64,000 nucleotides of DNA from a virus: IMG/VR virus record IMGVR_UViG_3300045988_146774, positions 64,001 through 128,000 of that record; one strand, given 5' to 3'. Made by a program: the position numbers and the translations under genes. A model generated the notes under the pieces. That model was given only the letters and a program-made list of their open reading frames with translations, was not told the DNA's origin and searched no databases. Below are positions 4,055 to 20,989 of the stretch, piece after piece (the stretch's first letter is position 1; every line of letters starts with the position of its first letter).

Positions 4055-5983
4055 TTGGCACAAGACGTATTAGATTTTAAAGTCAATATAGAAACAGAGA
4101 ATGCTGCTACTAAAATGGAAACTCTTGGTACTATGTATGACGAAATCAAAAATAAAATGGAGAAAGATAAAATTACTCCACAAATTGATTTATCGAAGGT
4201 CAAATCACAAGTCAAAGAGGTTCAAAATTTATTTTCAAATGCTGGAAAAGGCTCTGGCAAAAAGATAGATCTTTCTAATTTATTTACGGTTGATCCAAAA
4301 TCTTTTGATAAGGCAATGAGTTCTTTCTTCTCAAAAATGGATAAACAAATGAAGAGTCGTGCTTCCAAAGTAAGTAAAGATCAATCTGATCTTGCTAAAT
4401 TAATGGCAGCTGACAAAGCAAGTTCTTATCCGTATGCAGATGAGTTAAATGCCAAGAATCAAAAGCTTCTGAGACAATATTCTCGGCAAAATGTTTCCGG
4501 AGAAGATAGGAAGAATTTAGAGACTGCCATGAATCTTCAAGCACAAGTAGAGACATATCAGAAGCGAATGGCAAAAAGTATTTCGGATAATAATTTAGAA
4601 GCTGCAATTGCCGATTATGATAAATGGGCTTCATCTGTTGAGCAGTTAAATTCCGTATTGTCCATTCTTGGTAATACAATGGAAAAATCATTAGATACTT
4701 CTGCTGTTGATACCGCTATTTCTAAAGTCGAAAAATATAGAGACAGTCTGAAGAATGTTAGTGATGAGCAAAATAAAATGCTTGATAAAGTTACCAATAT
4801 GTACAATCAAGAAGGACTGACTCGAAGTGAAAAAATCAATGCGGACAAAGAGTTTCAGCAAGTTAAAAATGAGATCGCACATCAGAATAAATTAGCTGAA
4901 ATTCAAAGGGAAGCTTATTCTGGTAAATATTCTCTCACTTCTGCTAAGGCAGATACTTTCTTATCCAGATACAATGGACAAAGCTCTGAAGTTTTAAATA
5001 GAGCAAGGGCTGAGTTGGCTGAATATAAGAAAATATCTGAAGAGGTTGTTGCTCTATCTGATAAGAAGATTAAGGGAGAATTAATTGATACTTCCGGACT
5101 TGAAGAAAGTAAAGTTAAATTAGAAGAATGTGGCGAACGAATGAAGAATGTTCTCGAAGAAGTTCGTGTCGCTGAAAGTAAAACTCTTGATCCAAAGATA
5201 GCAACTTCTTCTGCTAACAGCGTTCAGAAGTATATGAATGACAATACAAAAGCTTTAAAGAAATATAAAGCTGAGTTTGAATCTGTCAGAGATATGTATA
5301 AGAACGCCACTACTGTTGGTGAAAAAAATACAGCGGATGTTGAATTTAAAAGATTGAAGTCTGCTGTTTCTGCTGAAGGATTGAATGGAAAAGGCTTATT
5401 CGGAAACTTAAGACAATCTTTTTCACAGTTATCTAAATTCAGCGGTGTTTGGGCTATGGCTCAAGGTGCTGTTGTTGATATTCCGAGACAAATTATGTCT
5501 GCTGTGACAGAAATTAATTCTGCACAGATTGAATTGAGAAAAGTTAGCAGTGCATCTGATAGTCAGTTGTCACAGTATTGGAATCAAGCTGCGGAAAGTG
5601 CCAAAAAATATGGTGCTACTGTTAGTGATGTTATTAGTAGCACTGCGGATTGGTCAAAACAGGGATATGGTCTAGATGATGCTAAGAAACTTTCTGATAT
5701 CACAACCTTGTATCAGAAAGTTGGAGACAATATGACGCAAGAAACTGCTTCGCAGAGTTTGGTTTCTACATTACAAGGTTTTAATATGCAAGCTGATCAA
5801 GCTGAATCTATTGTTGATAAGTCCAATGAGGTGGCAAACAATTATGCAATAGGATCAGATGGTATTGGAGAAGCTTTGCAGAGAAGTGCTGCATCATTTA
5901 ATGCTGCACACACAGATATTTCAAAGTCAATTGCTTTGATTACTGGAACCAATACAACACTTCAAGACCCGCAACGTGTCGGT
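4055..5983 (+). CDS. tail tape measure protein, exon 1 of 4
   Basis: TTG start 4 nt after GGAGGTGA. Long coiled-coil N-terminal region, then the TP901-type TMP core (..NYAIGSDGIGEALQRSAASF..ALITGTNTTLQDPQRVG). The conserved core motif breaks after GGT 5981-5983 and resumes at 7345 (NMWKTVSARLRG). The ORF-track tail CKHIADYY.. is intron read-through. Confidence 0.85.
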
Positions 5984-7344
5984 TGTAAACATATTGCCGA
6001 CTATTACAGTAATGTAATAAAAATAAAAGTGGCTATATCGGTTAATGTCCAGAAGTGGACAAGACCGAGGAAAGACTTGTATATTTTCGAAGCATATCAA
6101 TTAGGAAGGGTATGCTTTTATTAATTATAAAATTAAAATTAAGGAGATAAAATGCCAAGAAAAGGTAGTAAAACTGGATATACGATAAAATGTGAAAATT
6201 GTGGAAAAGAAATATATCAAACAAAAACTCAGTACAATAGAGCAAAGCATCATTTTTGTAGTAATAAATGTCAAAAGGATTTTCAACATAGACAACTATA
6301 TGAAAATAGAAAATGTCCGATATGTGGCTCCTTATTTGAAATAAGCAAGAAATCAAAACAAAAATTTTGTTCAACTAAATGTCAGAATGAATGGCAGAAA
6401 ACAAATACTGGTGAAAATAATGTTAGATTTAAAGGTTCTATCTGTAATTGCGATTGGTGTAATAAAAGGATAACAATTGGAAAGTCAAATATGGAAAGAT
6501 TTTCTAATCATTTTTGTTCTAATAAATGTAGACAAGCATGGTACTCAAATATTTATTCACAAAATGATACATGGAAAGAAGAATCTAGAATTCGAGCAGT
6601 TAAACTTTTAGAAGAAAGAAAAATAGATACAAATACAAAACCACAGATTATAATAAATAACTTGCTTGATGAATTGCAAATAAATTATATAAATGAAAAA
6701 AATTTGAAATATTATTCATTAGATAATTATTTAAAAGATAATAATTTGGCAATTGAAGTTATGGGAGATTTTTGGCATACCAATCCAATTGTGTATAATG
6801 AATTCCCATCAAAAGAAATACAAATAAAGAGAATATCAAAAGATAAAGCAAAACATACATATATTAAAAAATATTTTGACTATGAAATTTTATATTTATG
6901 GGAAAGTGATATTTATAAAAACTTGAACGTATGTAAAAAATTAATACAAAAATATATAAAAGAAAATGATCATTTACAAAATTATCATTCTTTCAATTAT
7001 CATATCGAAAATAATAATCTTATTTTAAATTCAAAAATAATTTACCCATATTTTGAAAAAGAATTAGTAGCATAGACTAATGCCTAATCATTTGGTTATG
7101 TGAAAAAGAAAATATACAAGAATCCGTAACGACTGTAACACTTTATATGGTAACATATAAAGTTTCGCCACTCTCCTATTAATATAGGATGAAGATCCAG
7201 TCTGAACTGTCAATAGACACTTCTATGAATTATTTCATAGTCGCCACGCTATAACTTAATGAAACGTGGGAATTAGCCAGAAATGACTAATCGCTATATT
7301 TAATATAGTCAGTACCATCTCACAAATGGGAAAGTAACAGGAAG
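5984..7344 (+). mobile_element. group I intron 1 (with homing-endonuclease ORF)
   Basis: P1: exon gtcggt 5978-5983 pairs with gccgac 5996-6001 (U.G at the splice site). P10: acatatt 5989-5995 pairs 7/7 with 3' exon aatatgt 7345-7351. The intron ends in G7344. P7: gactg 7131-7135 with cagtc 7198-7202. J8/7-like gaagatccagtc is present. Removal restores the frame and the TMP core motif. Confidence 0.8.
6152..7075 (+). CDS. intron-encoded homing endonuclease, zinc-ribbon repeats + Vsr-like/PD-(D/E)xK nuclease domain
   Basis: AAGGAGA RBS. Three CxxC...FCSxKC zinc-ribbon repeats at the N-terminus. The C-terminal segment LAIEVMGDFWHTNP...KDKAKH...ILYLWESDI resembles the Vsr/DUF559-type nuclease core (..GCFWH....WE..). 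It lies wholly inside intron 1. Confidence 0.7.
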   Translation: MPRKGSKTGYTIKCENCGKEIYQTKTQYNRAKHHFCSNKCQKDFQHRQLYENRKCPICGSLFEISKKSKQKFCSTKCQNEWQKTNTGENNVRFKGSICNCDWCNKRITIGKSNMERFSNHFCSNKCRQAWYSNIYSQNDTWKEESRIRAVKLLEERKIDTNTKPQIIINNLLDELQINYINEKNLKYYSLDNYLKDNNLAIEVMGDFWHTNPIVYNEFPSKEIQIKRISKDKAKHTYIKKYFDYEILYLWESDIYKNLNVCKKLIQKYIKENDHLQNYHSFNYHIENNNLILNSKIIYPYFEKELVA

Positions 7345-7923
7345 AATATGTGGAAAACGGTTAGCGCAAGATTGCGTGGTTCAGAATCTGAACTTAGTGC
7401 TATGGGTGAAGACACAGATGGTCTTGTAACCTCTACATCTAAGCTTCAGGCAAAAGTCAAAGCACTTACTGGTGGCTTTGACATTATGAAAGATAAAGAT
7501 ACATATAAAGATATCTATGATATTGTAGTTGGAATTGGTGAAGCATTTCCAAAGATGAATGACATAAATCGTGCTAGTTTGCTTGAACTTTTAGCAGGGA
7601 AAAACCAGTCAAATGCCCTCGCAGCAGCACTTCAGAACGTTGATGTGATAAAGAAGGCTTACAACACGGCTGCCAATGAATCAGAAGGATCTGCCGAAAA
7701 AGAATTTGACAATTATAAAAAATCGATCGATTATTCTATTCAAAATTTTAAGGCGCAGTTCCAATCTTTCTCATCATCCTTAGTATCATCTGACTTTGTA
7801 AAAGGAATTGTTGATAGTGGATCATCGGCACTTAATATCATTACGCAACTCATAGATAAAGTAGGCTTATTGAAAACTGCCTTCGCTACATTCGCTGGCG
7901 TAAAACTTTTCAAAAACTTAGAT
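7345..7923 (+). CDS. tail tape measure protein, exon 2 of 4 (3' end provisional: 7923, alternatively 7932)
   Basis: Continues the TMP core (NMWKTVSARLRGSESELSAMGEDTDGL...). The frame matches exon 1 across the 5983/7345 junction. The ORF-track tail (..LFYLNWSLHT) is probably intron read-through. Both 7923 and 7932 end in U and keep the frame with exon 3 at 12410. Confidence 0.7.
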
Positions 7924-8340
7924 TTGTTTTATCTAAACTGGTCACTTCATACATAAGAATATAACGAAAATGGTGTTGTAAACAAGTGTGTGTTGTTAAC
8001 GTTTTAAAATTAGGAAGATTAATTGCTGGGAAGCCTAATGCTTAATGAGCTACAACATAGTCGGAAACGGCAAGTGTGAATGCGACGAAAGTAGAAAAAA
8101 TCATTAAGATGACATATGGTGAAATAAAAGGCATCGGGAAGATGCTCCTAAGTGTCTAGTATAAGGGCAAAGGTTATAATAACCGACTAACTGATCAGCA
8201 ACGCACTGTTATAGAGAATATATAGCTGTATAGCAGGACGCTCAGAGACTACCGATCTTCGAAGTCAATATGACCTTACAGTATTGACTTATAATGTATA
8301 GTCCAAGAAACAATATATGTTTTGTTATTACATATTCAAA
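7924..8340 (+). ncRNA. group I intron catalytic core (ORF-less)
   Basis: P3: gaagat 8014-8019 with atcttc 8255-8260. J3/4-P4 taattgctggg 8020-8030 resembles aaauugcgggaaa of Tetrahymena. P4: ttgctg 8023-8028 with cagcaa 8196-8201. P7: gacta 8247-8251 with tagtc 8299-8303. P8: aagtcaata 8262-8270 with tattgactt 8282-8290. J8/7-P7 aatgtatagtcc resembles the consensus aagauauaguc. Confidence 0.7.
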
Positions 8341-8562
8341 TAAAATAACACGATGCCTTCTATCCCATCGTTATTGGCAATGGATAGAGAATAAATAACT
8401 ATAAACAATAATGGAGATTAGAAAAATATCTAATCTCCAAAATATAATATCGTGTCTCAGACCAGTCATAGTTTGAGATGCATATATTATAAGATATTTT
8501 CCGATTTCTGTAAATGGATTATGGAGAATATACAATTAGCTTACAGAAAGTGAGTGGCAATC

Positions 8563-8599
8563 CCCAACGGAGCTTGTGATGGCTCCGAAGGGTTTTCTT
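8563..8599 (+). terminator. rho-independent terminator (+ strand) inside the intron-2 island
   Basis: ccc-aa-cggagc (8563-8573) pairs with gctccg-aa-ggg (8582-8592), followed by ttttctt. Confidence 0.55.
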
Positions 8600-8642
8600 A
8601 AAAAGGAGGAAATTAATGGAATGATTCACAAATTCAAGTTAA

Positions 8643-8840
8643 TTATTTATTATGTAGTGTGAACATACTATGTGACATCATTTTAGCAATTGCCTTAGCT
8701 TTTTCATCACTGATGTCATCCTTAAAAGCGATAAGGAAAACAGCAATAATTTTAGAAATCTCATGAAGAGAAACATAAAGCATAAACGGAATCACTAAAT
8801 AGATGTTGTTTAAAAGAATTCCAAAAAATTCTTTCAACAC
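8643..8840 (-). CDS. small membrane protein (65 aa, hypothetical)
   Basis: GTG start after AAGGAGGG. Two hydrophobic stretches (IYLVIPFMLYVSL; IIAVFLIAF). A hairpin at 8413-8438 downstream on the - strand could be its terminator. Confidence 0.45.
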   Translation of the reverse strand: MLKEFFGILLNNIYLVIPFMLYVSLHEISKIIAVFLIAFKDDISDEKAKAIAKMMSHSMFTLHNK

Positions 8841-9071
8841 TACCCTCCTTTCTGTAAGATTAATTATCTTATTGGAAAATCAGGCAGAATAGCCCATTAG
8901 ATTTCCATCGTGCCATTGTCTTACACTGGCACTACCACGTAAAGATATGGTTACGAAAATCCGTGGAACTAAGCATATTGTGGTCATATGCTGATTTTGT
9001 AACAAATACATTATACCATTTTGTCAAAATTTGGAAATCCAGAACATACATTCAGAAAATAAATTAAACGG

Positions 9072-9410
9072 CTAATTGTATAAATTTCGGATTTTATCTT
9101 TATATGCAAAAGCAAGCGCACCTAGAAATTGTGCATTTGATGGACATTTGTTTGGAATATAACCGAATATTGGTTTTAGAATATCTTTTTGTTCATTAAA
9201 AAGATGTCGCACGACTGTACGAATGTTTGATTCTACGACCATTGTAGATGTATGGAATTTCTTTGCAATGGAAGGATATATGTCTTTTGTGATAAGATAT
9301 ATCTCATCATCTTCCACTTCGTTAATTAATTCAATCGCATATTTGATATATCGGTATCCTTTGTACCTCCGACTTATGCGACAGATGAATAAAAAGTCAT
9401 CAATTTTCAT
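9072..9410 (-). CDS. Spo0A C-terminal (DNA-binding) domain protein lacking a receiver domain
   Basis: Start at the ATG of MKIDD.. preceded by GAGGTGA. KGYRYIKYAIEL, ITKDIYPSIAKKFHTSTMVVESNIRTVV and FGY...CPSNAQFLGALA follow the Spo0A_C pattern (KGYxYLRxAI..TKxLYPxIAxxxxTTxSRVERAIRHAI..FGY...KPTNSEFIA) as I recall it. Confidence 0.7.
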   Translation of the reverse strand: MKIDDFLFICRISRRYKGYRYIKYAIELINEVEDDEIYLITKDIYPSIAKKFHTSTMVVESNIRTVVRHLFNEQKDILKPIFGYIPNKCPSNAQFLGALAFAYKDKIRNLYN

Positions 9411-9591
9411 ATAAATCACCTCATAAGTAAAAGATGCATTAATAATATACCATATTTAGCATACATTTCAAGATGTGACGTGCTAAGATTGTGTTAAGAT
9501 ATTAGTGTTAAATGTGTCGAATGGCAAAAATCACAATAAAACTATTATATTTTTGTGTATTATTTGTGTAGCATTTTCCCCATGGAACGGG

Positions 9592-9597
9592 TATAAT
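9592..9597 (+). promoter_or_regulatory. candidate -10 box (TATAAT) for the repeat-RNA/toxin operon
   Basis: Perfect TATAAT about 35 nt upstream of the tandem repeats. No convincing -35 was seen. Confidence 0.3.
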
Positions 9598-9631
9598 ATA
9601 AGCAAGAAAACAAAAGTTTTCTTATATACGT

Positions 9632-9751
9632 TTCACAATGTACGCCAAAGAAACATTGTATTTTGAGACAAACGTACTTCGCAATGTGTACCGAATTACA
9701 TTGTATTTTGAGACAAATTCCTTTCACAATGTAGGACAAAGAAACATTGTA
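9632..9751 (+). ncRNA. type III antitoxin-like tandem RNA repeats (ToxI/CptI-like), ~2.6 copies of ~45 nt
   Basis: ttcacaatgtacgccaaagaaacattgtattttgagacaaacgtac / ttcgcaatgtgtaccgaattacattgtattttgagacaaattcct / ttcacaatgtaggacaaagaaacattgta. The period is 45-46 nt. Each unit has an internal acaatgt..acattgt inverted repeat. Confidence 0.7.
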
Positions 9752-9787
9752 GAGGAGTGGTTCTGTTTAACAGATCACTCCTTTTTT
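9752..9787 (+). terminator. rho-independent terminator between repeat array and toxin ORF
   Basis: ggagtg 9754-9759 pairs with cactcc 9776-9781, followed by tttttt. The position matches the attenuating terminator of type III TA loci. Confidence 0.65.
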
Positions 9788-9803
9788 GATACATAGGAGA
9801 AAA

Positions 9804-10349
9804 ATGAAAGAACATGCTTTATATTTTGGGAAAAATGAGTATTATGAAATAATCAGAAGGAATGGTGGAACATGGAATGATTCAAAGGAAAGACCAATTG
9901 TATGTTTGATGAAATCCATAGAACACGAAAAGTTATATTGGGCTATTCCAGTTGGTAATTATTATCATAGAAATGAAGCTGCACGAGAAAGATTAGAAAA
10001 ATATCTTGGAAAAGATAAAAAGAATATACAATCTTGTTTTTATCATGTTGGAAATACAAATGAAAAATCTATTTTCTTTATAAGTGATGTTATACCTATT
10101 ACTGACAAATATATAGAACGGGAATATTTGAATAAAACAAGAAAGGTTCATGAGATAAAAAATAAAAAATTGTTAAATGAATTGGAGTATAAACTTAGTC
10201 GTATATTATCGTTTGAAAACAATAAACCAAATTATTTCCGTCAACACATTACAGACATTAAAACTTATCTGTTAGAAGAATTGAGACAGGAAGAATTACA
10301 ATCTCAAGAAGAAAACACAGAAGAACAAATCCAAGAATCAGAGCAGTAA
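9804..10349 (+). CDS. type III toxin, ToxN/AbiQ/CptN-like endoribonuclease (putative)
   Basis: ATG 9804 lies 3 nt after AGGAGA; the ORF-track start at 9786 overlaps the terminator. 181 aa. ERPIVCLMKS..EHEKLYWAIPVG and FFISDVIPI parallel the RPxxGIV...YxAPLTS and NxxxMIP segments recalled from ToxN/AbiQ. The repeats-terminator-ORF architecture is diagnostic. Confidence 0.65.
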   Translation: MKEHALYFGKNEYYEIIRRNGGTWNDSKERPIVCLMKSIEHEKLYWAIPVGNYYHRNEAARERLEKYLGKDKKNIQSCFYHVGNTNEKSIFFISDVIPITDKYIEREYLNKTRKVHEIKNKKLLNELEYKLSRILSFENNKPNYFRQHITDIKTYLLEELRQEELQSQEENTEEQIQESEQ

Positions 10350-10366
10350 TCACACTGCTCTTTTAT
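10341..10366 (+). terminator. rho-independent terminator after toxin gene
   Basis: gagcag 10341-10346 pairs with ctgctc 10355-10360, followed by ttttatt. Confidence 0.6.
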
Positions 10367-10442
10367 TATGTCAAAAATAAAGAGTAGAGAAAATTTTACC
10401 CTCTTCTATTCTACCACTTATATCCACAATCTTTACATTCAA

Positions 10443-10686
10443 ACTAACTACGTGCTGTTTTACTAAATATTCCAAGCAACCCTACTCCTACTGCTTTTGA
10501 TGCTGCGGAGATACGTTTGATATTTGTAAAATTGCATGTTGGGCAAGTTATTTGTGTGTTTGATTGTTGGCTTGAGGATTGATGTTGGGTGGATGTCGCA
10601 TTCCCTTTTACAGTACTCATTCTGTTTTCGTAGGTTTTTTCTGAAAATTGAAAACCGCCAAATTTATTAGCCAGAATACAGTAATA
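10443..10686 (-). pseudogene. truncated paralog of the C-terminal half of the zinc-ribbon gene 11789..12325
   Basis: The - strand frame reads ..ANKFGGFQFSEKTYENRMSTVKGNATSTQHQSSSQQSNTQITCPTCNFTNIKRISAASKAVGVGLLGIFSKTARS*. This parallels KKYGGNQFSECAYRHRL...THQHQSIQQQHITQVTCPYCKSTNTKKISAVSRAGSILGFGLFSKK. The N-terminal half and a proper start are missing. Confidence 0.55.
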
Positions 10687-10738
10687 TTACTAAATACAAT
10701 ACAATAGATTTATTTTTCATTTTGATATAAATAAAAAA

Positions 10739-10976
10739 AGAATAATACAATAAATAGACTCATCTCAGGTGCTAGACCACCAGGTGCATCAGTGAAATAA
10801 CGCAATTTACTATTATCTAGATGGTAAAGAACGCCAATGCTCACAAACATATTCCAGTCTACCGAAGCGGACTCTCGTATATTCGTGAACGTGTACTGGT
10901 TTCAGCACATTATACGTCATATAGCAATCACCTCCAAGATACACCCTTGAGATGAGCCTGTTTATTGTATTATTCT
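10739..10976. repeat. ~31-bp imperfect inverted repeats bracketing a 176-bp segment
   Basis: Left arm: agaataatacaataaatagactcatctcagg (10739-10769). Reverse complement of the right arm (10946-10976): agaataatacaataaacaggctcatctcaagg. About 28 of 31 positions are identical. Confidence 0.6.
10813..10920 (-). CDS. 35-codon mini-ORF inside the inverted-repeat element (hypothetical)
   Basis: GGAGGTGA then 7 nt then ATG. Product MTYNVLKPVHVHEYTRVRFGRLEYVCEHWRSLPSR. Below the ORF-track length cutoff. Confidence 0.35.
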   Translation of the reverse strand: MTYNVLKPVHVHEYTRVRFGRLEYVCEHWRSLPSR

Positions 10977-10984
10977 ATATTATT

Positions 10985-11677
10985 TTATTTGTTTTTATTT
11001 AATAATTTTTCTGCTTTTTCAAGTTCATATTTATTATGTATAGAACTTATTAATGCCTTTAAGAAACTTTTCATTTGCTCTATGTCGTATTCGGGATGTT
11101 TCACCATGTAATGTGTTTCGTCGTTTCCAAGCCACGTGGCTGCATTCGCTAATTTTTGTATAGGTTCAAATTCGATTTTTTGGCAACATTTTTCCAATCG
11201 GCATTCTCCAATAGCTTCTTTGGTTAGATTTTGTTCTTGTTGTAAATAGTCTTTCACAAGAAATTCAAGAGCTTTTCTGTAACCTGTGCCGGCTATTGTA
11301 AGCAAACCTTGTCTTTCACATTCACACGCCTCAGAAAATATTTTTGTAAAATCTGGATATTTGTCTTTAATATCTTGAGGAATTGAACTTTCTTCAATCT
11401 CTTTCGGATATGGATATCTAACATCTTTTTCAACATTTTTCAAACTACTTTTCATGTGATATAGAGATACATAATATTGTTTACAATTTGTACAATACCA
11501 AACTGCAAATAAAAGAGGCTTCTCCTTTTCATTGAAAGATCTAATTAAACATCCGTTTGCATATTCTGGTTTTCCAGACTTATGACATATTGGACATGTT
11601 GGTTCGATTTCTACAGAACTTGAAACTTTCGCATTTTCAATTTGTTTCGAATCAAATAATTTTATATCAACATTCAT
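10985..11677 (-). CDS. DUF4145 domain protein with N-terminal zinc ribbon
   Basis: 230 aa. N-terminal CPICH...YCTNCKQYY. The C-terminal segment TIAGTGYRKALEFLVKDYL...LGNDETHY fits the DUF4145 pattern (R.alE.l.kd...GN.aaH) as I recall it. Confidence 0.55.
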   Translation of the reverse strand: MNVDIKLFDSKQIENAKVSSSVEIEPTCPICHKSGKPEYANGCLIRSFNEKEKPLLFAVWYCTNCKQYYVSLYHMKSSLKNVEKDVRYPYPKEIEESSIPQDIKDKYPDFTKIFSEACECERQGLLTIAGTGYRKALEFLVKDYLQQEQNLTKEAIGECRLEKCCQKIEFEPIQKLANAATWLGNDETHYMVKHPEYDIEQMKSFLKALISSIHNKYELEKAEKLLNKNK

Positions 11678-11788
11678 TTATTGTCACATCCATTAACCTT
11701 ATACATAAAATTATATATTAATTGCTTTTTATTGTATATACGGAACTAATGTTTTGGTAATTTTTACCATAATTGATACATAAAGCTG

Positions 11789-12325
11789 TTAGAAATCACT
11801 ATTGCAATTGTTACAATGCCATTCTTTTCCCAATTTCTTAGAGAACAATCCAAATCCAAGGATTGATCCTGCTCTGCTTACTGCTGATATTTTTTTAGTG
11901 TTTGTAGATTTACAGTATGGGCAAGTTACCTGAGTTATGTGTTGCTGTTGGATGGACTGGTGTTGGTGGGTGGATTGATTTTTATTTTCTTGTTTTATTA
12001 AACTCAATCTATGACGATATGCACATTCAGAAAATTGATTACCGCCATATTTTTTTGAGAGAATGATATCATAATCATTTTCATTGTCCATATTGTTGAT
12101 AAAATCATTCATGGTTTCTTTTGTAATAATTGTTTTTATATTACAAAAGCGACATTTTTTGTCGGCGTTTAATTCATCGCTTGAGTATATCATTGCACAT
12201 TTTGGACAGATATAAATATAGTCATCTGCTTCTAAATTTGAACTTAAAGGGTATCCACACTGATTGCATTCTTTAGCATAATTACTAATTTCTTTCCCAC
12301 ATTCAGGACACTTTATTAATGCCAT
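11789..12325 (-). CDS. double zinc-ribbon protein (hypothetical)
   Basis: Start at the ATG of MALIKCPECGK.. preceded by GGAGGAA; the ORF-track start is 14 codons further upstream. CPECG..CNQCG, CPKC..CRFC and CPYC..CNNC motifs. Confidence 0.55.
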   Translation of the reverse strand: MALIKCPECGKEISNYAKECNQCGYPLSSNLEADDYIYICPKCAMIYSSDELNADKKCRFCNIKTIITKETMNDFINNMDNENDYDIILSKKYGGNQFSECAYRHRLSLIKQENKNQSTHQHQSIQQQHITQVTCPYCKSTNTKKISAVSRAGSILGFGLFSKKLGKEWHCNNCNSDF

Positions 12326-12373
12326 ATTATTTCCTCCGAACAATCTTATAAATTTATTTAAGTATATCATGAA

Positions 12374-12402
12374 TTGTAAAAGTATGCCAATAATTTTATA
12401 TT
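12374..12402 (+). promoter_or_regulatory. candidate sigma70-type promoter immediately upstream of TMP exon 3
   Basis: TTGTAA 12374-12379, 17-nt spacer, TATATT 12397-12402. The predicted start falls within a few nt of A12407/G12409. No Shine-Dalgarno precedes ATG 12407. Confidence 0.3.
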
Positions 12403-12409
12403 CATTATG

Positions 12410-15400
12410 CAGTTTAAAGACTTAGGAAGTTTATTTGATAGTTTTGGAGAACTTAATTTTAAACATGCAAGTAAAGCCTCTTCTTTTGCGGATTTGGATG
12501 GAATAGATAAAAACACTATAAAAGGTTTGTTTAAAATAGATAACAATGATATTAGTGATTTTACAATGGCTCAAATTCAGGCAAAAGCAAGTACGATGGG
12601 ACTTACTGAGTCATTAACAGATGAATTAATGGCTATGTCAAAAGACGCTGATTTTACAGCCAAAGCAAAAGTCGGTAAAGTAACTTGGGGGGAAGCACTA
12701 AAAGAAGGTTCAACAAATGCGGATCAAATAGGGAAAGCATTAATGAAATCTTCCGATGTTTCCGATAAAGCAAAGAAAAAATTATCGGAAGTTTATGATA
12801 AATTTGGAAGTGGAAGTCAAGTATATCAAAAACAGATAGAAAATATTATAAATGGTGCAAATGGTTTAGATGATATTTCTGGTAAATTTACAACTCTTGG
12901 GGCTGATGTCCAAAAATCTACTGGAATGTTCGAATCCGCTGGTAATATTATCAAAGGATTCTTTGCATCAATAAAAGGGTATATTCCTATTCTTGCTGTT
13001 GCCGGAACAGCTTTCGCAGCGTTTAAACTTTGGGACTATTCTCAAACTGGATATACTAGAGCTAAAGAGAAAGCAGAAACTTCAGCTTCTACTTTTTCAG
13101 AAGATAAATCTAATCTCCAATCTCTTCAACAAGAACTTGATACAACAAAGAGTAAAATTGAAGAACTCAATGCTACAAAAGAACAGAATGGTGGATTGTC
13201 TCTTACTGATGAAGCGGAGTTATCTAGACTTGAACAAGAAAATGCCCAGTTGGAGCGTAAGGTCGCAATTCAGAAACAGCTCACAGAAATTTCCGCACAG
13301 GCTGCTTCAAGTGACGCTCGAAAAGCTGCCAATACTGCCCAAACATATTGGGATCATCTTAAAGAGAAAAATGGCGGAGGATTTTTTGGAACGCTAAAAT
13401 CTATTCCTGAATATTTTGCTACAAAACGTGAAGAAAAAGATGGAAAAGTTTATCTCACTAAGGAGAAAAATACTTGGGAAAAAGAAAATGGTGGTAAAGG
13501 AAATACCACTCTTGAAAATCAAACAAAAGCCAATATTAAAACGCTCAAAGATTACCAAAGTCAATTAGAAGATATTGAAACTCAACTTGGAAGTTCTGAT
13601 TTGACAAAAGGAGAAAGAAAAAGTCTCCAAAAACAGCAAAAAGAACTTAGTGAAAATATTGCTGATACAAAGCAGACTTTATCTACACAGACAGACCAAC
13701 TTCAGCAGTGGATTGATGCTTCATATGGGGCAGATGGAAAACTTGAGTCTGGAGCATCTAAATATGTAGATAATTGGAATAAAATCATTAACGATGTTAA
13801 CAATACTATCGGGCAAAAGACCAAAACACAAATTGACGCAAGTAATTTAGATACTTACTTCAACTCTTCTTCTGGTTCTGCTATGAAAGAATATTTGGAG
13901 AATATTGTTGAGGAAGGCGGATCTGCTCAAGATGCACTTGACGCATTTAGAGAGTCCGGAATGCGTCTCAAAGATATTGATGTTTCAGAAAATGGATTTC
14001 TTACATATTTTGAAGATGTAAAACGTCAGGCAGAGGAAGCAAAGCAAGCTGCGGAAGATTATTCCGCTTCTGTTTCAGATGTAGAATCTGCAACTGAATC
14101 TGCAAATCAGGACAAAGATTGGTCTACTATCCAAAGTGCTTATAAGGCTGCAAAGGAATCATTGAAAGAAGGCAAAACTGGAACCGATGATTTTCAGACT
14201 ATGGCAAAATTCCTTAACTCCAATGCGGTAAAGAAATATGCAGAGCAAGGCGGTAAATATACTGCTGATGCTTATCAGAAAGCTTTCCAAGAGGCAATGG
14301 GAACAGCCGATAGATGGTTTGGTGATGATGAAGCCACTAGTATGAAGAATTTCGTCAATGACTTCAAAAATAAAGGATTGTGGGATGTCTCTACTGACGC
14401 AATGGGTCTTTGGGATATCAAAACAAACTTTAATACAACTGCTGAAGCTGCTGACAAGTTTGGAATGAGTGTTGAATCCGTAGAAACAATGTTGCATGGT
14501 CTTGAAGCCTATGGATATGACTTTAGTGACATTATGTTTTCTGCTGAAGGTCTTGATGAATATAAGACAGCTCTTGACGGGATTAAATCTACATATGATG
14601 AAATGACGGATGGTGCTGCTAAAGATAGACTTGGATCATTGATTGATAGTTTTGAATCTGAATATGATAAATTCCAAAATGGAGATTTAAAGAATCTTAC
14701 AAAGGATCAGATTGTTAAAATTAAATTTGAGTATGATTTATCTCAAGTTGAGCAAAAAACTCAAGAGTTGATTGATCAAGCTGCAAACAGTGGCTCTAAT
14801 AATGATTTAGCCGGAGCAATAGTTTCTCAGAAAAAAGAGCGTGATTTATTAGAGGGACGGACGAAATATACAAAAGATTCTGATGAAGGGTATTCATATT
14901 CTTATGATCAGATTGATAAGCTCCAACAAAAAATGACTGGCGCAACAAAGACAGAACGAGCAGAGATTAATAAGCAAATTCTTGCATATCAAGAAATGCA
15001 AAATAATTTTCAGAAATACAGACTTGATGGTGGAGATTTAAATTGGAATGATTATTTGGATACTCCTTCTGCTACCGCTGCTTTTGATGAGATTATTAAA
15101 AAAGGTCTTATGACAAAAGACCAACTCAAAGATTTGTTTGGAGAAAAAGCAACTTATGAGATTGATGCAAAGCTCAACGACGATAATCTCCAAAGCAAAT
15201 TAAAGAAGCTTAAATCTGGTGAAAGCATTACTTTTAAAGCAGATGTTGGCGATATTGAGACTGATGTAGAGGCTGTAAAAAATGAAGACGGTACGGTAAC
15301 ATACACAGCAAATATTGGTGGAGTCCCAAAAGAAGTAAATAAAATTGCCGACGCTGAAGGCAAGATTCATTATACTGCTGATTTTGATGGTTCGAAGGAA

Positions 15401-18400
15401 TGGCTTGAGAACAATCTTAAAAAAGAAGAAACAATTACATTCAAAGCTGACGTTGCTGGGGTTACACAAGATATCCAAGCTTATAAAGACGAAGACGGTA
15501 CAATTCATTATTATAGTGTTTTAGACAATGGAACACGCAAAGAACTAGAACAACATAAAAATGAAGACGGTACAATTACCTATACTACTACTGCTGACAC
15601 TTCTGGTGTGGAAAAAGCGACCAAGAAAGCTAAGGAAAATGCTGAAAAGAATAAAATCGAATTAGAGATTACTGCAAAAGATACCAATCTTGTAGATAAA
15701 TATATACAAGAAAAACAGAAAAGTGACGCAGCGAAATCAAAACTATCAGATTCTGAAGCTGTACATGGTAATGTAGATAGTCGTGATCGTCCAATGATTT
15801 ATTGGGACAAAGAAAACCTTAAATCTAATAAATCTGCTCTTAAGAGTTGGGGGCAGAATCCAAAGGATTTAAAAGGATCTTATTCTACTGTCATGGGCGG
15901 AAGTGATGAATTTCAAGGTGTAGAAATTGCATATACTCCTGTGCTGAAGACTGGTGATGGAAAAGGTGAAGTTATCAGCAAAAACACAATGAGTAAGTAT
16001 ATTAACACTCTCATTGATCAAGCAAAATCCGCTGGTGACGGAAATTGGACTACTGAAGATTTATTAAAATTAGATTCTGAAGGTTTATTAGTCGACGGGA
16101 AGAAAATTTCTAATATGATTGCAGATGTTGGTGACACTGCCAAAGAAACCGGCGAAAAGATGCATGATATAGATGATTCTCTTTATTCCGAAGAATATGC
16201 AAAATACTGGGATGAAATTTCTGAAAAGGCTGAAAAGGCTAATATGTCCGTCGAGGATTATGTCAATACAGTTGCTTCTACTAGCGTAACATCAGATAAT
16301 CTTGTAACAAAAGATAATGGATTTGATAAAGTTGTTGAAAACGCAAAGAATGCTGTCGAGACATTAAAAGGGCTTGGTAATGAGAATCTTAAGTTAGATT
16401 TTGATTTTAAAACTACTAATCTTACAGATATAGAAAATCAAATTCAGCAAGCAAAGAGTAATCTTGATCAGTTTAAGAATGATGACGGTACTGTTAATAT
16501 GTCAATCAATGGAGCACAAGAAGCAGTTACAATTCTTGAGACATTGATTCAGCAAAAACAGCAAGCCTCTAATCCTGTAATAATGGAAGTAAGCACAAGT
16601 GGACTTGATTCCGGAGTATCTGGTGCGGTTTCAAAATTAAAGGAGTATCAAAATGCCTTAAACCAGCTTAATACTCTTAATGAATTAAAAACTGCCGGGG
16701 TACAAATTGATGATTCTCAAATATCTGATGCCGAGGATAAAGTAAATGGCTTATTTGATGAAATTCAGAAAGCTTCTGAAAAAGGTCAATTTAAAATAAA
16801 TGCCGATGTTTCTGTAGATTCATCTTCACAAGAAAAGCTACAGTCAGACCTTAAAAACATGACTCCGGAGATTAAAGCAAAAATTACTGCGGATGATTCT
16901 GACACAAAGAAAGATGGCAAGACTACTGAAGCAAAAGTAAATTACAAAAAAGGATCACAAGAAAAACCAAGTCCTAAAAATGCCAAAGTTAATTACAAAA
17001 AAGGTTCTCAGGCAAAGCCTAGTCCAAAGAACGCAAAAGTTAACTATAAAAAGGGTAGCCAGGCTAAACCAAGTCCTAAAAATGCCAAAGTTAATTACAA
17101 AAAAGGTTCTCAGGCAAAGCCGACATCTCCTAAAACAGCAACAGTTAACTATAAACTTGGTACAGTTGCAAAACCACCTGCTGTAACAGTTAAAGTTAAT
17201 TACGATACTTCTGGTGCACCTAAAGTTCTTGGAACAGCGCATGTAAAAGGATCTACTGGTGGTTTATATCCTATTCCACAATTATCAAGACGTGCACTGG
17301 CAAGCGGAACATTGTCTGATTCCTCATGGTTGAAAGATAGATGGAAAACGAAAGACTCTGAAATGGCTTTGGTTGGGGAGGTCGGACAGGAACTTGTAGT
17401 TTCTGGAAACAGATGGTACACCGTCGGTGATAATGGTGCGGAATTTGCTCATATTCCTGCCAAATCAATCGTATTCAATTCTAAGCAGACTGAAGAGCTG
17501 TTGAAAAAAGGGTTTACTAATTCTAGAGGCAAAGGCAATATATCATTACCTGGAACAGAAGCATTTGCATCTGGTACTGCTTACAGGTTAGGCAGCGGAG
17601 CCTCTTCTACTACAAATGCTAAGAAAAAAACTTCGTCTGGAACCAAATCCTACGGAACTTCAAAAGCGAAATCAAGCTCTGGTTCAAACACAAAATCCAA
17701 TTCCAATTCAAATCCTGATTCATCTGAATCAGCAGAAAAATCTGAAGAATTATTAGATTGGATTGAAACTCTGCTTTCAAGGACTTCTAGATTGACAGAG
17801 TTAGCCACAAGTGCTGTTGATCGTGCGGTCGGATTGGCTAATAAGCAGAATGCACTTGTAGATGCGGTTACAAAAACTCAGAATGAAATCACTACAAACC
17901 AAAATGCAGCGAATAAATATTTTGCTCAAGCAAATTCTCTTGGTCTTGCTCAAGGATATGTCGACAAGATTAAAAATGGTACTCTTGATATTGAATCAAT
18001 TACTGATGATAATCTTAAAGATAAAATCTCTAAGTACAAAGATTACTATGAGAAAGGCTTGTCTGCTCAAGATAAAGTCCTCGACCTTCAAGACAAACTT
18101 AATGAACTCTACCAGAAACGATTGGAAATCATAGAAAAAGAATATGATACTATCGTTGAGGTAAACGATTCATTAAAGGATATGCTTGATGCTAAAATTA
18201 GTTACAACTCTGCTTATGGCGTAGCAAATGACAATCAAGATAATATAGATAGTATCAATAAGTCTATCAAAGCACAAGAAGATACTATCAATCAGCTTAC
18301 TAAAAAGCTTGATGCATATCAGAAGGAAGTTAATTCTCAGATTACTTCCGGGACATTGAAGAAAGGTTCTGAAGATTATAGGTCTGCACAGAAAAATCTT

Positions 18401-19287
18401 AATGATTTTACGGCAAATATTTATAAAGCATCACAAGAACTTATCGAGTTACGGGATAAACTTGTACAGTTAAGAGCTGATGCAATTCAGACGATTATTG
18501 ATACGTTCAAAAGACGTTCTGATAAATTGGATAAGTATACTTCTCTTCTTGAAGCTAAAGATGAAACTGTACCAGAATCAGTATATCAGGAAAGACTGGA
18601 TAACAACAATGACACAATTCGTAAGAACCAAGAAGCCAGAGCCATTTGGCTAAAACGACAAGCAACCGAAGATGTAAATTCGGACAACTATAAGAAATAT
18701 GCTGAGGAAATCCAGAAACTTGATGAATCCACTCTTGACCTTATGAAAGACAACGAAGATTTAAAGAACTCTATCTATTCTCTCAGAATCAAAAATCTGG
18801 AAGATGCCATCAAAGGTTATGATGATTTGGAAACTGAGTTAAAAGGATTCAGAGATCTTTTAAATGACGATGCTTTCTTAGATAAAAAGGGTGGAATCAC
18901 AGATGAAGGATTGGCTCAGATTACTCTTCTCTCTCAGAGTATCGGAAATGCAAAACAGAAAATTTCTGACCTCACAACCGGACTTCAGAAAGTAAAAGAA
19001 CTTTATGATAATGGTGTTATCTCACTTAAAGAATATAACGAAAAATCTGCGGAATATCGCAAAGAACTTCAGTCTTCTACAAGTGATGTAAAATCTTATC
19101 AGAAGAGTTTGACTGATTTATATCAGAATGCTTTGAAAACAGAAGTGGATGCACTTCAAAAAGTCATAGATAAAAGAAAGTCGGCACAGACCGCCCTTGC
19201 TTCATATTACGATTTTCAAAAAAAAGTTACATCTCAAACAAATGATGTAAACAGCTTAAAAGCTCAAATTGCAGCACTCGAAGGGGT
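12410..19287 (+). CDS. tail tape measure protein, exon 3 of 4
   Basis: 6.9-kb open frame. It has a hydrophobic segment (GYIPILAVAGTAFAAFKLW), long coiled coils, EDGT-I/V-x-Y repeat modules and the TMP-type motif ALVGEVGQELVV. ATG 12407 lies in frame 3 nt upstream. The 3' end is set by the intron 3 P1 pairing; the tail TLFALFV is read-through. Confidence 0.8.
16934..17211 (+). repeat. 51-nt (17-aa) tandem coding repeat within TMP exon 3
   Basis: KVNYKKGSQ(E/A)KPSPKNA occurs four times, followed by degenerate copies (KVNYKKGSQAKPTSPKTA, TVNYKLGTVAKPPAVTV, KVNYDTSGAP). Confidence 0.85.
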
Positions 19288-19529
19288 AACATTATTTGCC
19301 CTATTTGTTTAATTGCTGGAACGCCCTTAGAGCTACATATACTACAACGAATACATGAAATAAGGTAAATCGTGAATGTTAAAAAATATGTAGATTGGGT
19401 AATCAGCAGCGAAATTCCGAACAGGAATACGTTCAACGACTAGGTAGGATGAGTGTACTACCGTAGGATCGCAAGCGATTGGCGATTCGAAAAATACAAA
19501 CTGTTTATTAATTAAATATAGAATTCATA

Positions 19530-19557
19530 AATCACGTTGAGATATACGTGATTTTTT
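19530..19557 (+). terminator. terminator-like hairpin inside intron 3 upstream of the endonuclease ORF
   Basis: aatcacg 19530-19536 pairs with cgtgatt 19547-19553, followed by tttt. It may limit endonuclease expression. Confidence 0.35.
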
Positions 19558-19603
19558 AGTGTGCGAATTTATTTAAAGAGAATAAAAGAAATGGAGGTGA
19601 AAT

Positions 19604-20893
19604 ATGCTAGTACCTAATCAAAAAGTTGAGGTATGCTGGAATAATACAACAAAAAAACATTATATGGAATTGGGATATGAATTTACAAAAATCAGAGATA
19701 AATTTCTTGTAAATGTTGAAGATTTAACACCTCATTCCGGAGAACAAATAAGCGTAATTTGTGATTACTGTGGCAATCAAAAAATGACAACATTCAATGA
19801 TTATAATTGTTCTATTAAAAAATATCCATATAAATATTCTTGTTCAGAATGCATCCCAGTAAAACAAAAAGAAATTAGAGGAAATAAATATAAAGGAAAA
19901 TATTTTAACGTATTTGTCAATAAATGTATTGAGAATAATTGTGTTCCAATTTCAACTATTGATGATTATCAAAATGCATATTCTAAGCTATATTTTATTT
20001 GTAGTAAACACGGACAACAATGTATAACTTATAATAGCATTAAGGCTGGGTCTTGGTGTATAGAATGTGGACATGATAAAGGGGCAAAAAAGATTGCAAC
20101 GCCAATAGATAAAGTAATTAAAATAGTTGAATCAAAAAATAATAATAAAATTATTAATCCAGAAGAGTACATAAATTTTAGCACTTCTAATCTTCTTATT
20201 AGATATGGATGCTGTGGAAAAGTTTCAACTACTTCATTGAACTCGTTAGAGAATAGTGATGGTCTATGCTATGATTGTGGACAAAAGAAAGCAAAAGAAC
20301 ATATAAAATTATCTATGGAAGAAGTAACAAAACGGATAAATTCTGTTAACAATAATAAATTGTTAAATCCAAGTGAATATATTGACAATTCTACAATTAA
20401 TTTAAAGATATTATGTGGAGAATGTAATAAAAATATTTTTATAACAAGCTTGGCTAATTATGAATATAATCAAAAAATACGTTGTGGAACATGTTCTCAG
20501 AGGATAAGCGTCCCGGAAAGAACAACACGAAATATTTTAGAAAAATATGATATAAAGTATCTTCCAGAATACAAATTCAAAGATTGTAAAGACAAAAGAC
20601 CACTGCCATTTGATTTTTATCTTCCAGAATATAATATTTTAATAGAATTAGATGGGGAGCATCACTATCATCCTAAATGGGGTGATGAGCAGTTGAAATA
20701 TATTCAAAATCATGATAAAATGAAAAACGAATATTGCGAAAATAATAATATCACTTTAATTCGAATTCCATTTTGGGAGTTTGATAATCTTGAAAAAATT
20801 CTTATAGAAAAACTTAATCTTCCACAAATCGTGGACATAGAATTATCCAATGGTCGAATTTTTAAATACAAAGCACACAAACCAAAAGAATAA
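19604..20893 (+). CDS. intron-encoded homing endonuclease, multiple zinc ribbons + Vsr/DUF559-like PD-(D/E)xK domain
   Basis: GGAGGTGA RBS. Four CxxC..CxxC modules. The C-terminal segment RPLPFDFYLPEYNILIELDGEHHY...ITLIRIPFWEF is typical of DUF559/Vsr-fold nucleases. It lies inside intron 3 between the P7 strands. Confidence 0.7.
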   Translation: MLVPNQKVEVCWNNTTKKHYMELGYEFTKIRDKFLVNVEDLTPHSGEQISVICDYCGNQKMTTFNDYNCSIKKYPYKYSCSECIPVKQKEIRGNKYKGKYFNVFVNKCIENNCVPISTIDDYQNAYSKLYFICSKHGQQCITYNSIKAGSWCIECGHDKGAKKIATPIDKVIKIVESKNNNKIINPEEYINFSTSNLLIRYGCCGKVSTTSLNSLENSDGLCYDCGQKKAKEHIKLSMEEVTKRINSVNNNKLLNPSEYIDNSTINLKILCGECNKNIFITSLANYEYNQKIRCGTCSQRISVPERTTRNILEKYDIKYLPEYKFKDCKDKRPLPFDFYLPEYNILIELDGEHHYHPKWGDEQLKYIQNHDKMKNEYCENNNITLIRIPFWEFDNLEKILIEKLNLPQIVDIELSNGRIFKYKAHKPKE

Positions 20894-20989
20894 TTAATAA
20901 ATAGAAGATATAGTCTAATCTCATATGAAAGTATGAGGAGAGTTATACTACTCTCTCACTTATGTAGCGAATAAGTGAAAAGATAAATG

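Follow-up and report, generated by a model that had tools for sequence, protein, structure and literature searches.

The closest described relative of the locus reported here is CptIN of Eubacterium rectale (CptIN_Er; PDB 4RMO; Rao et al. 2015, PMC4627078), a toxin-antitoxin (TA) system of type III whose toxin component, CptN_Er, is toxic and is counteracted by a single RNA unit (PMC4627078). In the survey of Blower et al. 2012 (PMC3401426), cptIN loci carried repeats of 40-48 nt in 1.9-3.4 copies and toxins of 45-213 aa (Table 2); all 33 loci were chromosomal, and one of them lay in Fusobacterium nucleatum subsp. vincentii strain ATCC 49256 (Table 1). On the phage side, toxIN has been found on Clostridium phage D-1873 (PMC3401426), tenpN in Caudoviricetes genomes (PMC12283969) and AbiF/RCd22 on C. 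difficile prophages (PMC12373285), and according to PMC12283969 no type III TA system has been reported in phages apart from D-1873 and the tenpN hits of that study. We analysed a 64,000-nt stretch of viral DNA (positions 64,001 to 128,000 of IMG/VR record IMGVR_UViG_3300045988_146774; hereafter, the window) in which positions 9521-10378 very probably constitute a functional type III TA cassette of the CptIN family on an SPbeta-like temperate phage, a judgement that draws on homology, locus architecture and a predicted protein fold and carries toxicity and inhibition over from relatives. In the broad sense in which Blower et al. 2012 (PMC3401426) use the family name, the locus is a cptIN member, a new example of the known CptIN system and not a new kind of system; what it adds is modest, namely recurrent phage carriage of a CptIN clade, the identification of Rfam family RF02920 as a pseudoknotted antitoxin, and a catalytic loop that departs from the canonical one. 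To a specialist, the presence of such a module on a prophage would be no surprise.

The cassette consists, in this order, of a TATAAT box, a 5′ hairpin, three repeat units of ~45 nt, a strong terminator, a ribosome-binding site (RBS), a 181-aa open reading frame (ORF) and a second terminator. S1a and S1b, and S2a and S2b, denote the two strands of helices S1 and S2 of each repeat unit.

9521 to 10378, plus strand: whole cassette, an 858-bp module and the sole stretch common to the window and related contig L006
9592 to 9597, plus strand: -10 hexamer TATAAT, read directly from the sequence, of putative promoter function
9604 to 9623, plus strand: 5′ stem-loop at the predicted transcript start (8-bp stem, -6.5 kcal/mol, z = -4.8)
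9624 to 9750, plus strand: cptI-like antitoxin repeat array (RF02920 match; 45 nt x 2.7 by Tandem Repeats Finder)
9628 to 9659, plus strand: unit 1 pseudoknot (S1a ACGT, TTC, S2a ACAATGT, S1b ACG(C), loop CAAAGAA, S2b ACATTGT)
9660 to 9673, plus strand: linker 1, ATTTTGAGACAAAC, single-stranded, probably recognised and cleaved by the toxin
9674 to 9704, plus strand: unit 2 pseudoknot (S1 GTAC/GTAC, S2 GCAATGT/ACATTGT)
9705 to 9718, plus strand: linker 2, ATTTTGAGACAAAT
9719 to 9750, plus strand: unit 3 pseudoknot (S1 TCCT/AGGA), ending after S2b and abutting the terminator
9752 to 9787, plus strand: intrinsic terminator between array and toxin gene (-17.1 kcal/mol, z = -4.8, T6)
9795 to 9800, plus strand: RBS AGGAGA, read from the sequence
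9804 to 10349, plus strand: cptN-like toxin gene with ATG start, 181 aa, of the clade with Gly in the catalytic loop (IPVGNYYHR), assigned by profile hidden Markov model (HMM), PDB match, predicted fold and hhalign
10340 to 10369, plus strand: second terminator and cassette end, overlapping the TAA stop (-11.4 kcal/mol, z = -4.5)

An initial annotation, made from the sequence alone, had proposed a type III TA layout at this place. Each element it listed was found where it had been placed or within a few bases of there, and the TATAAT box, the AGGAGA RBS, the 181-aa ORF and both terminators were borne out by sequence reading and folding. The 5′ stem-loop, which lies directly 3′ of the -10 box, is an addition to that list and may have a role such as 5′-end protection. 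The first terminator is a bulged 14-bp hairpin (GAGGAGTGG..CACTCC followed by T6), and a simple terminator scan missed it because of the internal bulge. A 187-aa version of the toxin with a TTG start at 9786 was considered and is unlikely, as that start falls inside the terminator T-run. The order of promoter, repeats, terminator and toxin is kept in relatives, and CptIN_Er likewise combines a promoter, ~45-nt repeats in two to three copies, a terminator and the toxin in this order. Of 73 distinct related loci, 55 had a TAnAAT hexamer no more than 70 nt upstream of the first unit, at variable distance. For the stretch from unit 3 to the ATG, the median predicted free energy (dG) in relatives was -15.5 kcal/mol, and a strict terminator rule (T>=4, dG <= -8) was satisfied by 37 of the 73, so that conservation of the terminator rests mainly on the median dG and has no clean count behind it.

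The toxin gene product matched NCBIfam NF047359 (type III toxin-antitoxin system CptIN family toxin) over residues 5-154 with an E value of 8.7e-17 and 61.4 bits. In a sequence search of PDB the sole meaningful match was 4RMO, CptN of E. rectale (E 4.3e-7). An AlphaFold2 model built from 48 homologues reached a predicted local distance difference test score of 97.1, and the best Foldseek match in PDB was 4RMO_A (E 3.1e-10, target-normalised TM-score 0.82), followed by MazF and CcdB toxins and by AbiQ (4GLK, E 7e-4). Comparison of the clade profile with the canonical CptN profile in hhalign gave 99.7% probability and an E value of 4e-26. The ToxN/AbiQ-type endoribonuclease fold proposed at the outset thus agrees with HMM, PDB match, profile comparison and predicted fold alike, and both checks suggested with it, an HMM search and a structural comparison, point to CptN, with AbiQ the weaker match. 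The family, left as ToxIN/CptIN-like, resolves to CptIN by HMM, PDB and hhalign, whereas for ToxIN/AbiQ no Pfam or PADLOC match was found. From profiles and the modelled fold, the 181-aa ORF is best described as a CptN homologue of a divergent subfamily and not as an equivalog of CptN_Er, with which it shares just 22-27% identity. At E <= 1e-3 the toxin family extends to 791 clusters at 90% identity and 237 representatives at 50% identity, and homologues with a named source go under the label 'hypothetical protein'.

Upstream of the toxin gene, Tandem Repeats Finder reported a period of 45 nt and 2.7 copies (71% matches, score 142, 9631-9751), in line with the ~45-nt repeats in about 2.6 copies first noted. 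Repeat period, copy number and toxin length (181 aa) all fall within the published cptIN ranges, and the ~45-nt period that the initial annotation had given for CptIN is likewise within 40-48 nt. The inverted repeat CAATGT..ACATTG, which had been seen inside each unit, is found at three places, and no more, in the 64-kb window (9636-9658, 9682-9703 and 9727-9749) against 0.06 expected by chance, and none of 100 shuffles reached three. The third repeat is cut off immediately 3′ of its hairpin; in the relatives' loci listed individually, too, the third unit is followed by non-linker sequence. Phage PhiTE carries a pseudo-antitoxin against ToxIN; a further antitoxin copy of this kind was sought across the 64-kb window, and just the three units of the array were found.

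For comparison, loci with the same toxin clade were collected, 55 of them viral (IMG/VR) and 80 genomic, 135 in total. Tandem repeats of 39-46 nt in 2-3.4 copies, ending 40-70 nt before the ATG, were found in 109 of 142 upstream regions of relatives, and exactly three hairpins in 106 of the 142. The units follow a common plan of S1a (4 nt), TTC, S2a ([A/G]CAATGT), S1b (4 nt), an A-rich loop (CAAAGAA in the plan, 3-7 nt across the family) and S2b (ACATTG[T/C]). Within the window the S1 pairs ACGT/ACG(C), GTAC/GTAC and TCCT/AGGA differ from unit to unit while complementarity is kept. We aligned 140 distinct units from the 135 loci, leaving S1 unused in unit selection. The three inner S1 positions were 98-100% paired, with four to five pair types each and double changes in 31, 37 and 64 units, respectively; the seventh S2 pair, also unselected, was paired in 139/140 (AU 78, GC 37, GU 15, UA 9). 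None of 500 shuffles attained the observed S1 pairing scores, and slid controls, in which the partners were moved by 1-3 columns, were 20-52% paired. S1 is therefore a covarying 3-bp helix, and each unit is an H-type pseudoknot with an A-rich loop, the topology of crystallised CptI. The claim of a type III TA layout is in this way supported by toxin homology, repeats in the cptIN range, conserved element order and pseudoknot covariation.

In a cmscan search, the array matched RF02920 with 73.5 bits against a gathering threshold of 52.1, over the full model (1-113), and this was the sole Rfam match in the whole window. Matches to this family also preceded the toxin genes of relatives, in Selenomonas, in an Erysipelotrichaceae genome, in two phage contigs from IMG/VR and, with 127.5 bits, in Fusobacterium vincentii ATCC 49256, that is, in arrays of the same Gly clade, and wherever the family was scanned for and detected it lay directly upstream of a CptN-clade toxin gene (in addition to 9624-9750 of the window, it was seen in loci L012, L018, L092, L136 and L145). 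Rfam names RF02920 'Fusobacteriales-1', types it as Cis-reg and models three plain hairpins; the window adds to these the covarying S1, which the Rfam model lacks, and the downstream CptN-type toxin.

The Cis-reg typing, and the position of the array in the 5′ leader of the ORF with a terminator after it, would suit a cis-regulatory leader or attenuator that acts on the downstream gene through the terminator and is no antitoxin in trans. We consider this highly improbable: the gene downstream is a CptN homologue, from a family whose antitoxin is just such an upstream repeat array; the pseudoknot units and conserved single-stranded linkers are as in CptI; and three near-equivalent units are atypical for an attenuator. 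The two functions would moreover be compatible, because the terminator also sets the toxin-to-antitoxin ratio. RF02920 is accordingly read here as the antitoxin array of this toxin clade, each modelled hairpin being the S2 helix of a pseudoknot, and it seems that its database entry should be re-annotated to name a type III antitoxin; an orphan RNA family thereby gains a function and a corrected structure, with pseudoknots for three plain hairpins. The family reportedly goes back to a motif screen by Weinberg et al. 2017. The main text of Weinberg 2017 does not mention 'Fusobacteriales-1', and no mention of that name was found in the literature searched.

Linkers across the family are 10-14 nt long with the consensus T(G/T)ATACAA(A)(T), and CAA is present in 142 of 146. 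By analogy with known type III systems, the linkers are probably the region recognised and cleaved by the toxin. As the array has only two linkers, only unit 2 could be released by cuts on both sides, and it is the sole full processed unit to be expected; in CptI_Er, with approximately two repeats, just one unit could likewise be released in this way. The course of events can be sketched from ToxIN and CptIN biology, which supplies the transcription pattern, cleavage, inhibition, toxicity and role. A single promoter would give rise to a short RNA with three pseudoknot units, the majority of transcripts ending at the 9752-9787 terminator and a minority reading through into the gene for the 181-aa CptN-like endoribonuclease. 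The toxin would then cleave the array in the conserved single-stranded linkers (..GAGACAAA..) and stay attached to the processed pseudoknot (chiefly that of unit 2) in an inactive ribonucleoprotein. Were the cassette no longer transcribed, the labile RNA would decay and the freed toxin would cut cellular and viral RNA; a competing phage shutting off host transcription, or loss of the prophage, could be the trigger. PMC12373285 cites the shut-off of host transcription as activating ToxIN.

The RNA can be compared with CptI_Er through the canonical CptIN_Er locus (L146), whose 45-nt unit AAGTTTACCACTGACCGATATGTGGTATATAAATGGTCGGGTTGA fits the numbering of PMC4627078 (G13, U30, L2 = A27-G35, G44-A45); matching the two places the CptI_Er cleavage site at GA^AA, presumably. 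Both RNAs form an H-type pseudoknot with the succession S1a, short loop, S2a, S1b, A-rich loop and S2b. They differ in that S1 is 3-4 bp and S2 7 bp in the window, against ~5-6 and ~4-6 bp in CptI_Er on our own reading of L146, and in that the short loop is 3 nt (TTC) in the window units and 1 nt in CptI_Er; in addition, the units within the window array differ from each other (71% matches), a further distinction from CptIN_Er.

The catalytic loop of the toxin calls for closer comparison. The catalytic residues of ToxN are K33, T52, S53 and K55 (motif APL-T-S-x-K), and with T52V the protein is no longer toxic (PMC8860590). The active site of CptN_Er is described as a Ser-Ser/Thr-Arg triad, given unnumbered, with D81, S85 and Y104 (PMC4627078); assigned through the ToxN motif APL-T52-S53-x-K55, the triad would be S51-S52-R53 of IPLSSR. 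The window toxin carries its equivalent of the ToxN motif at the same position of the fold, with the loop I48-P49-V50-G51-N52-Y53-Y54-H55-R56, and thus has IPVGNYYHR where CptN_Er has IPLSSR. In the hhalign alignment R30, R56, S89 and Y108 correspond to R30, R53, S85 and Y104 of CptN_Er, so that these four are conserved between homologous toxins of the same predicted fold, and Y54/H55 are placed opposite Ser51/Ser52.

Several points weigh against a functional CptIN cassette, or against parts of that assignment. The NF047359 score lies below the NCBIfam equivalog cut-off of 90 bits, and scans of the toxin against Pfam-A and PADLOC returned no family even at E <= 10. Gly51/Asn52 stand in place of Ser51/Ser52, three residues are inserted relative to canonical CptN, and D81 of CptN_Er aligns with Thr85; with the catalytic loop so altered, RNase activity cannot be assumed. 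The window RNA has no detectable sequence similarity to CptI_Er, and RF02920 has no match in L146. The TATAAT at 9592-9597 has no convincing -35 element and no TG extension, and a consensus promoter scan did not call this site. Finally, the only published test (six coliphages, in E. coli) found no phage resistance conferred by cptIN (PMC3401426), which leaves an anti-phage role without direct precedent in the cptIN family. The first two points, with the 'hypothetical protein' labels of relatives on plasmids, also make for an annotation gap through which defence-system surveys will miss the toxin.

The loop would also suit a catalytically dead or repurposed CptN relative, an RNA-binding protein that no longer cleaves RNA, in a locus that does something else, e.g. 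RNA-guided regulation or sequestration: the catalytic serines are replaced, the three additional residues are shared with the motif class WAIPxG[ND]xxHR of 117/120 closest relatives, and the equivalent exchange in ToxN, T52V, abolishes toxicity (PMC8860590). Yet R30, R56, S89 and Y108, which would serve catalysis or RNA positioning, are retained. G51, H55 and R56 do not vary across the clade alignment, and the His-Arg pair is also present in an intermediate motif class, WxIPTS[DN]xxHR (e.g. IPTSDLSHR), which retains a Ser; this suggests a remodelled site. A conserved linker motif is what continued recognition and cutting would lead one to expect, and a tight terminator ahead of the ORF is expected for a harmful product. 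A dead or repurposed protein is therefore improbable in our estimate. From the alignments we infer that the active site is remodelled and not dead, and it is on this account mainly that membership in CptIN is stated with qualification. The canonical motif WxIPLSSR is present in 118/120 relatives of CptN_Er. The altered loop offers a natural experiment on which residues are essential in RNases of the ToxN/CptN fold.

A more speculative extension, on the doubtful side as a whole, is that WAIPxG[ND]xxHR marks a large unannotated CptN subfamily with a rebuilt active site, in which the catalytic-loop Ser/Thr has been lost, three residues have been inserted and His-Arg is invariant. Such a toxin might use a different catalytic set, in which His possibly takes the part of general base that it has in RNase A, and recognise another target motif (..ACAA..), and the cassette might be a specialised mobile weapon against rivals, exchanged by temperate phages. 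If true, this would be the first natural role for the CptIN family.

As a separate feature of the toxin, residues 160-181 (10281-10346) form a strongly acidic tail, EELRQEELQSQEENTEEQIQESEQ, which belongs to one predicted long helix of residues 149-180 in the AlphaFold2 model. CptN_Er lacks this C-terminal tail, and homologues vary in it.

With ToxIN of Pectobacterium, Bacillus and E. coli and with AbiQ/antiQ, the locus shares the principle, the gene order and a related toxin fold. It differs from them in that the window toxin has no Pfam ToxN match and resembles AbiQ at the fold level only, and ToxI has as many as 5.5 copies of a 34-36-nt unit and assembles into triangular 3:3 complexes. The complex that characterises the CptIN family is a 2:2 RNA-protein heterotetramer. 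The phage-borne toxIN (D-1873), tenpN and AbiF/RCd22 are alike in being type III or type III-like modules on temperate Firmicutes phages with a presumed defence or prophage biology, but their toxins are of other families than the window's CptN. Against the 33/33 chromosomal cptIN loci of 2012, the window locus is phage-borne, and no report of a phage-borne cptIN was found in the literature searched.

The cassette lies inside a two-strand island of ~4.4 kb (about 7954-12406) that separates two ORFs homologous to tape-measure proteins (TMPs). The flanking features are as follows.

7348 to 7953, plus strand: tape-measure fragment upstream of the island (phrog_4211 positions 800-942), collinear with the L006 TMP
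9072 to 9419, minus strand: Spo0A_C-domain ORF, divergent and outside the cassette (Pfam PF08769, 74 bits)
12407 to 19312, plus strand: large tape-measure ORF of 2301 aa downstream of the island, with collinear tblastn matches to the L006 TMP

Both ORF 4055-6121 and ORF 7348-7953 match tape-measure profiles. In L006 the tape-measure gene is unbroken at the island site, and the cassette lies upstream of the whole gene. Comparison of L006 with positions 7000-13500 of the window identified 9521-10378 as the only shared DNA, 858 bp with 100% identity in another genomic context; in other relatives homology to the window stops at 10412-10434, just past the second terminator, and different genes lie beyond. 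An identical 858-bp sequence in two contexts, together with these homology ends, indicates that the cassette is a discrete exchangeable module. The description of the locus as nested in a structural gene therefore holds insofar as the island splits the tape-measure coding region; the cassette itself is outside any reading frame, and in L006 it is outside the tape-measure gene altogether.

The exact 181-aa protein occurred in 708 index blocks of the assembly collection. Ten listed contigs with the identical toxin, 56-958 kb in length, carry the families YomU tube, YomV, YomW, YonD, YonG and an SPP1-type holin, and one of the ten carries an integrase. On the strength of these SPbeta-type structural families and the one integrase, the carrier is an SPbeta-like temperate phage or prophage of gut bacteria. 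The closest genome matches were Lachnospiraceae metagenome-assembled genomes at 68-75% identity, and megablast of window positions 1-25000 against 50,697 phage records found no near-identical phage.

Relatives of the toxin were present in 55 IMG/VR viral contigs. A 160-kb IMG/VR contig (L011) has a 72%-identical toxin between a tape-measure fragment and a phrog_1305 gene, and a group of 58%-identical toxins occurs in viral contigs of 65-115 kb; in L018, the sole member of this group inspected, the toxin is near an anti-repressor and an integrase. Among deposited phage records, Clostridioides phage pCD1602_4, an unannotated record, is the only one with a relative, a distant match. Five Clostridium plasmids (large plasmids or plasmid-prophages) carry relatives labelled 'hypothetical protein'. 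In F. nucleatum subsp. vincentii ATCC 49256 the clade is represented by L092, which is probably the cptIN locus recorded there by Blower et al. CptIN is the type III TA family with the least clear role, and a clade that recurs on phages, with 55 IMG/VR contigs and 708 index blocks, gives a handle on a role between phages or in prophage maintenance.

Judged by analogy, defence of the lysogen, i.e. abortive infection or exclusion of rival phages, is the most likely role of the cassette, with prophage retention second and purely selfish persistence third. The occurrence of the identical cassette in two contexts, the relatives on large Clostridium plasmids or plasmid-prophages and on phage pCD1602_4, the plasmid-maintenance traits ascribed to CptIN_Er in PMC4627078, and the lack of phage resistance from cptIN in E. 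coli (PMC3401426) would also agree with a selfish addiction module that secures its own retention, or that of a prophage or phage-plasmid, with no effect on other phages. This is possible but less likely than not. The negative phage test was made with six coliphages and in a heterologous host, abortion of phage infection is on record for ToxIN and for TenpIN (PMC3401426), and integrated SPbeta-like prophages need post-segregational killing less than plasmids do. The question concerns the role of the cassette and not its mechanism, and lysogen defence and retention can coexist.

The ORF at 9072-9419 encodes 115 aa comprising the Spo0A C-terminal DNA-binding domain alone; it adjoins the cassette in 9 of the 10 contigs with the identical toxin and is absent in L006. 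A phage-borne Spo0A-like regulator of this kind could interfere with host sporulation control. Other opposite-strand genes of the island are a DUF4145/phrog_1305 ORF and a zinc-ribbon ORF, of 230 aa and 193 aa, which lie on the minus strand in the region 10413-12406. This region is swapped among relatives (L001-L010), which have ORFs of 466 aa and 257 aa, or of 262 aa and 186 aa, in its place. Accessory or defence genes may have a hotspot here; PADLOC recognised no defence family among the island genes adjoining the cassette and the swap-region genes tested. A 58-aa ORF (10444-10620, minus strand) resembles the C-terminal end of the 193-aa zinc-ribbon ORF (11789-12370, minus strand), with CPxC followed by KKISA..G..G.FSK in both, and each is a weak Zn_ribbon_PaaD match, which suggests that the small ORF is a duplicated or remnant zinc-ribbon module.

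At the canonical locus L146 (899-3480), a gene with an RNA-ligase domain (PF09414) lies upstream of CptIN and a Peptidase_M15_4 gene, which may be endolysin-like, lies downstream, with a helix-turn-helix regulator nearby. An RNA ligase beside an RNase toxin hints at RNA repair or at a prophage setting there too.

The tape-measure region of the window is interrupted at two further places. Its N-terminal part (4055-7953) is split by an insert at ~6122-7347 that carries an HNH-endonuclease-like ORF (6152-7075, phrog_1271). In L010 the flanking tape-measure pieces are fused in one 767-aa ORF, in which the matches abut (L010 7547/7551), and the insert looks like an intron or homing-endonuclease insertion. 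Group I and II introns were sought across the whole window as the cause of the split gene, and none reached the Rfam gathering threshold. The second insert, at 19313-21042, separates sequences that adjoin each other in the tape-measure gene of L006 and contains a 429-aa ORF (19604-20893) with weak PADLOC matches to PD-(D/E)XK or methyl-directed restriction-enzyme-like families (E 2.5e-5); this ORF is present in L010 at 99% identity.

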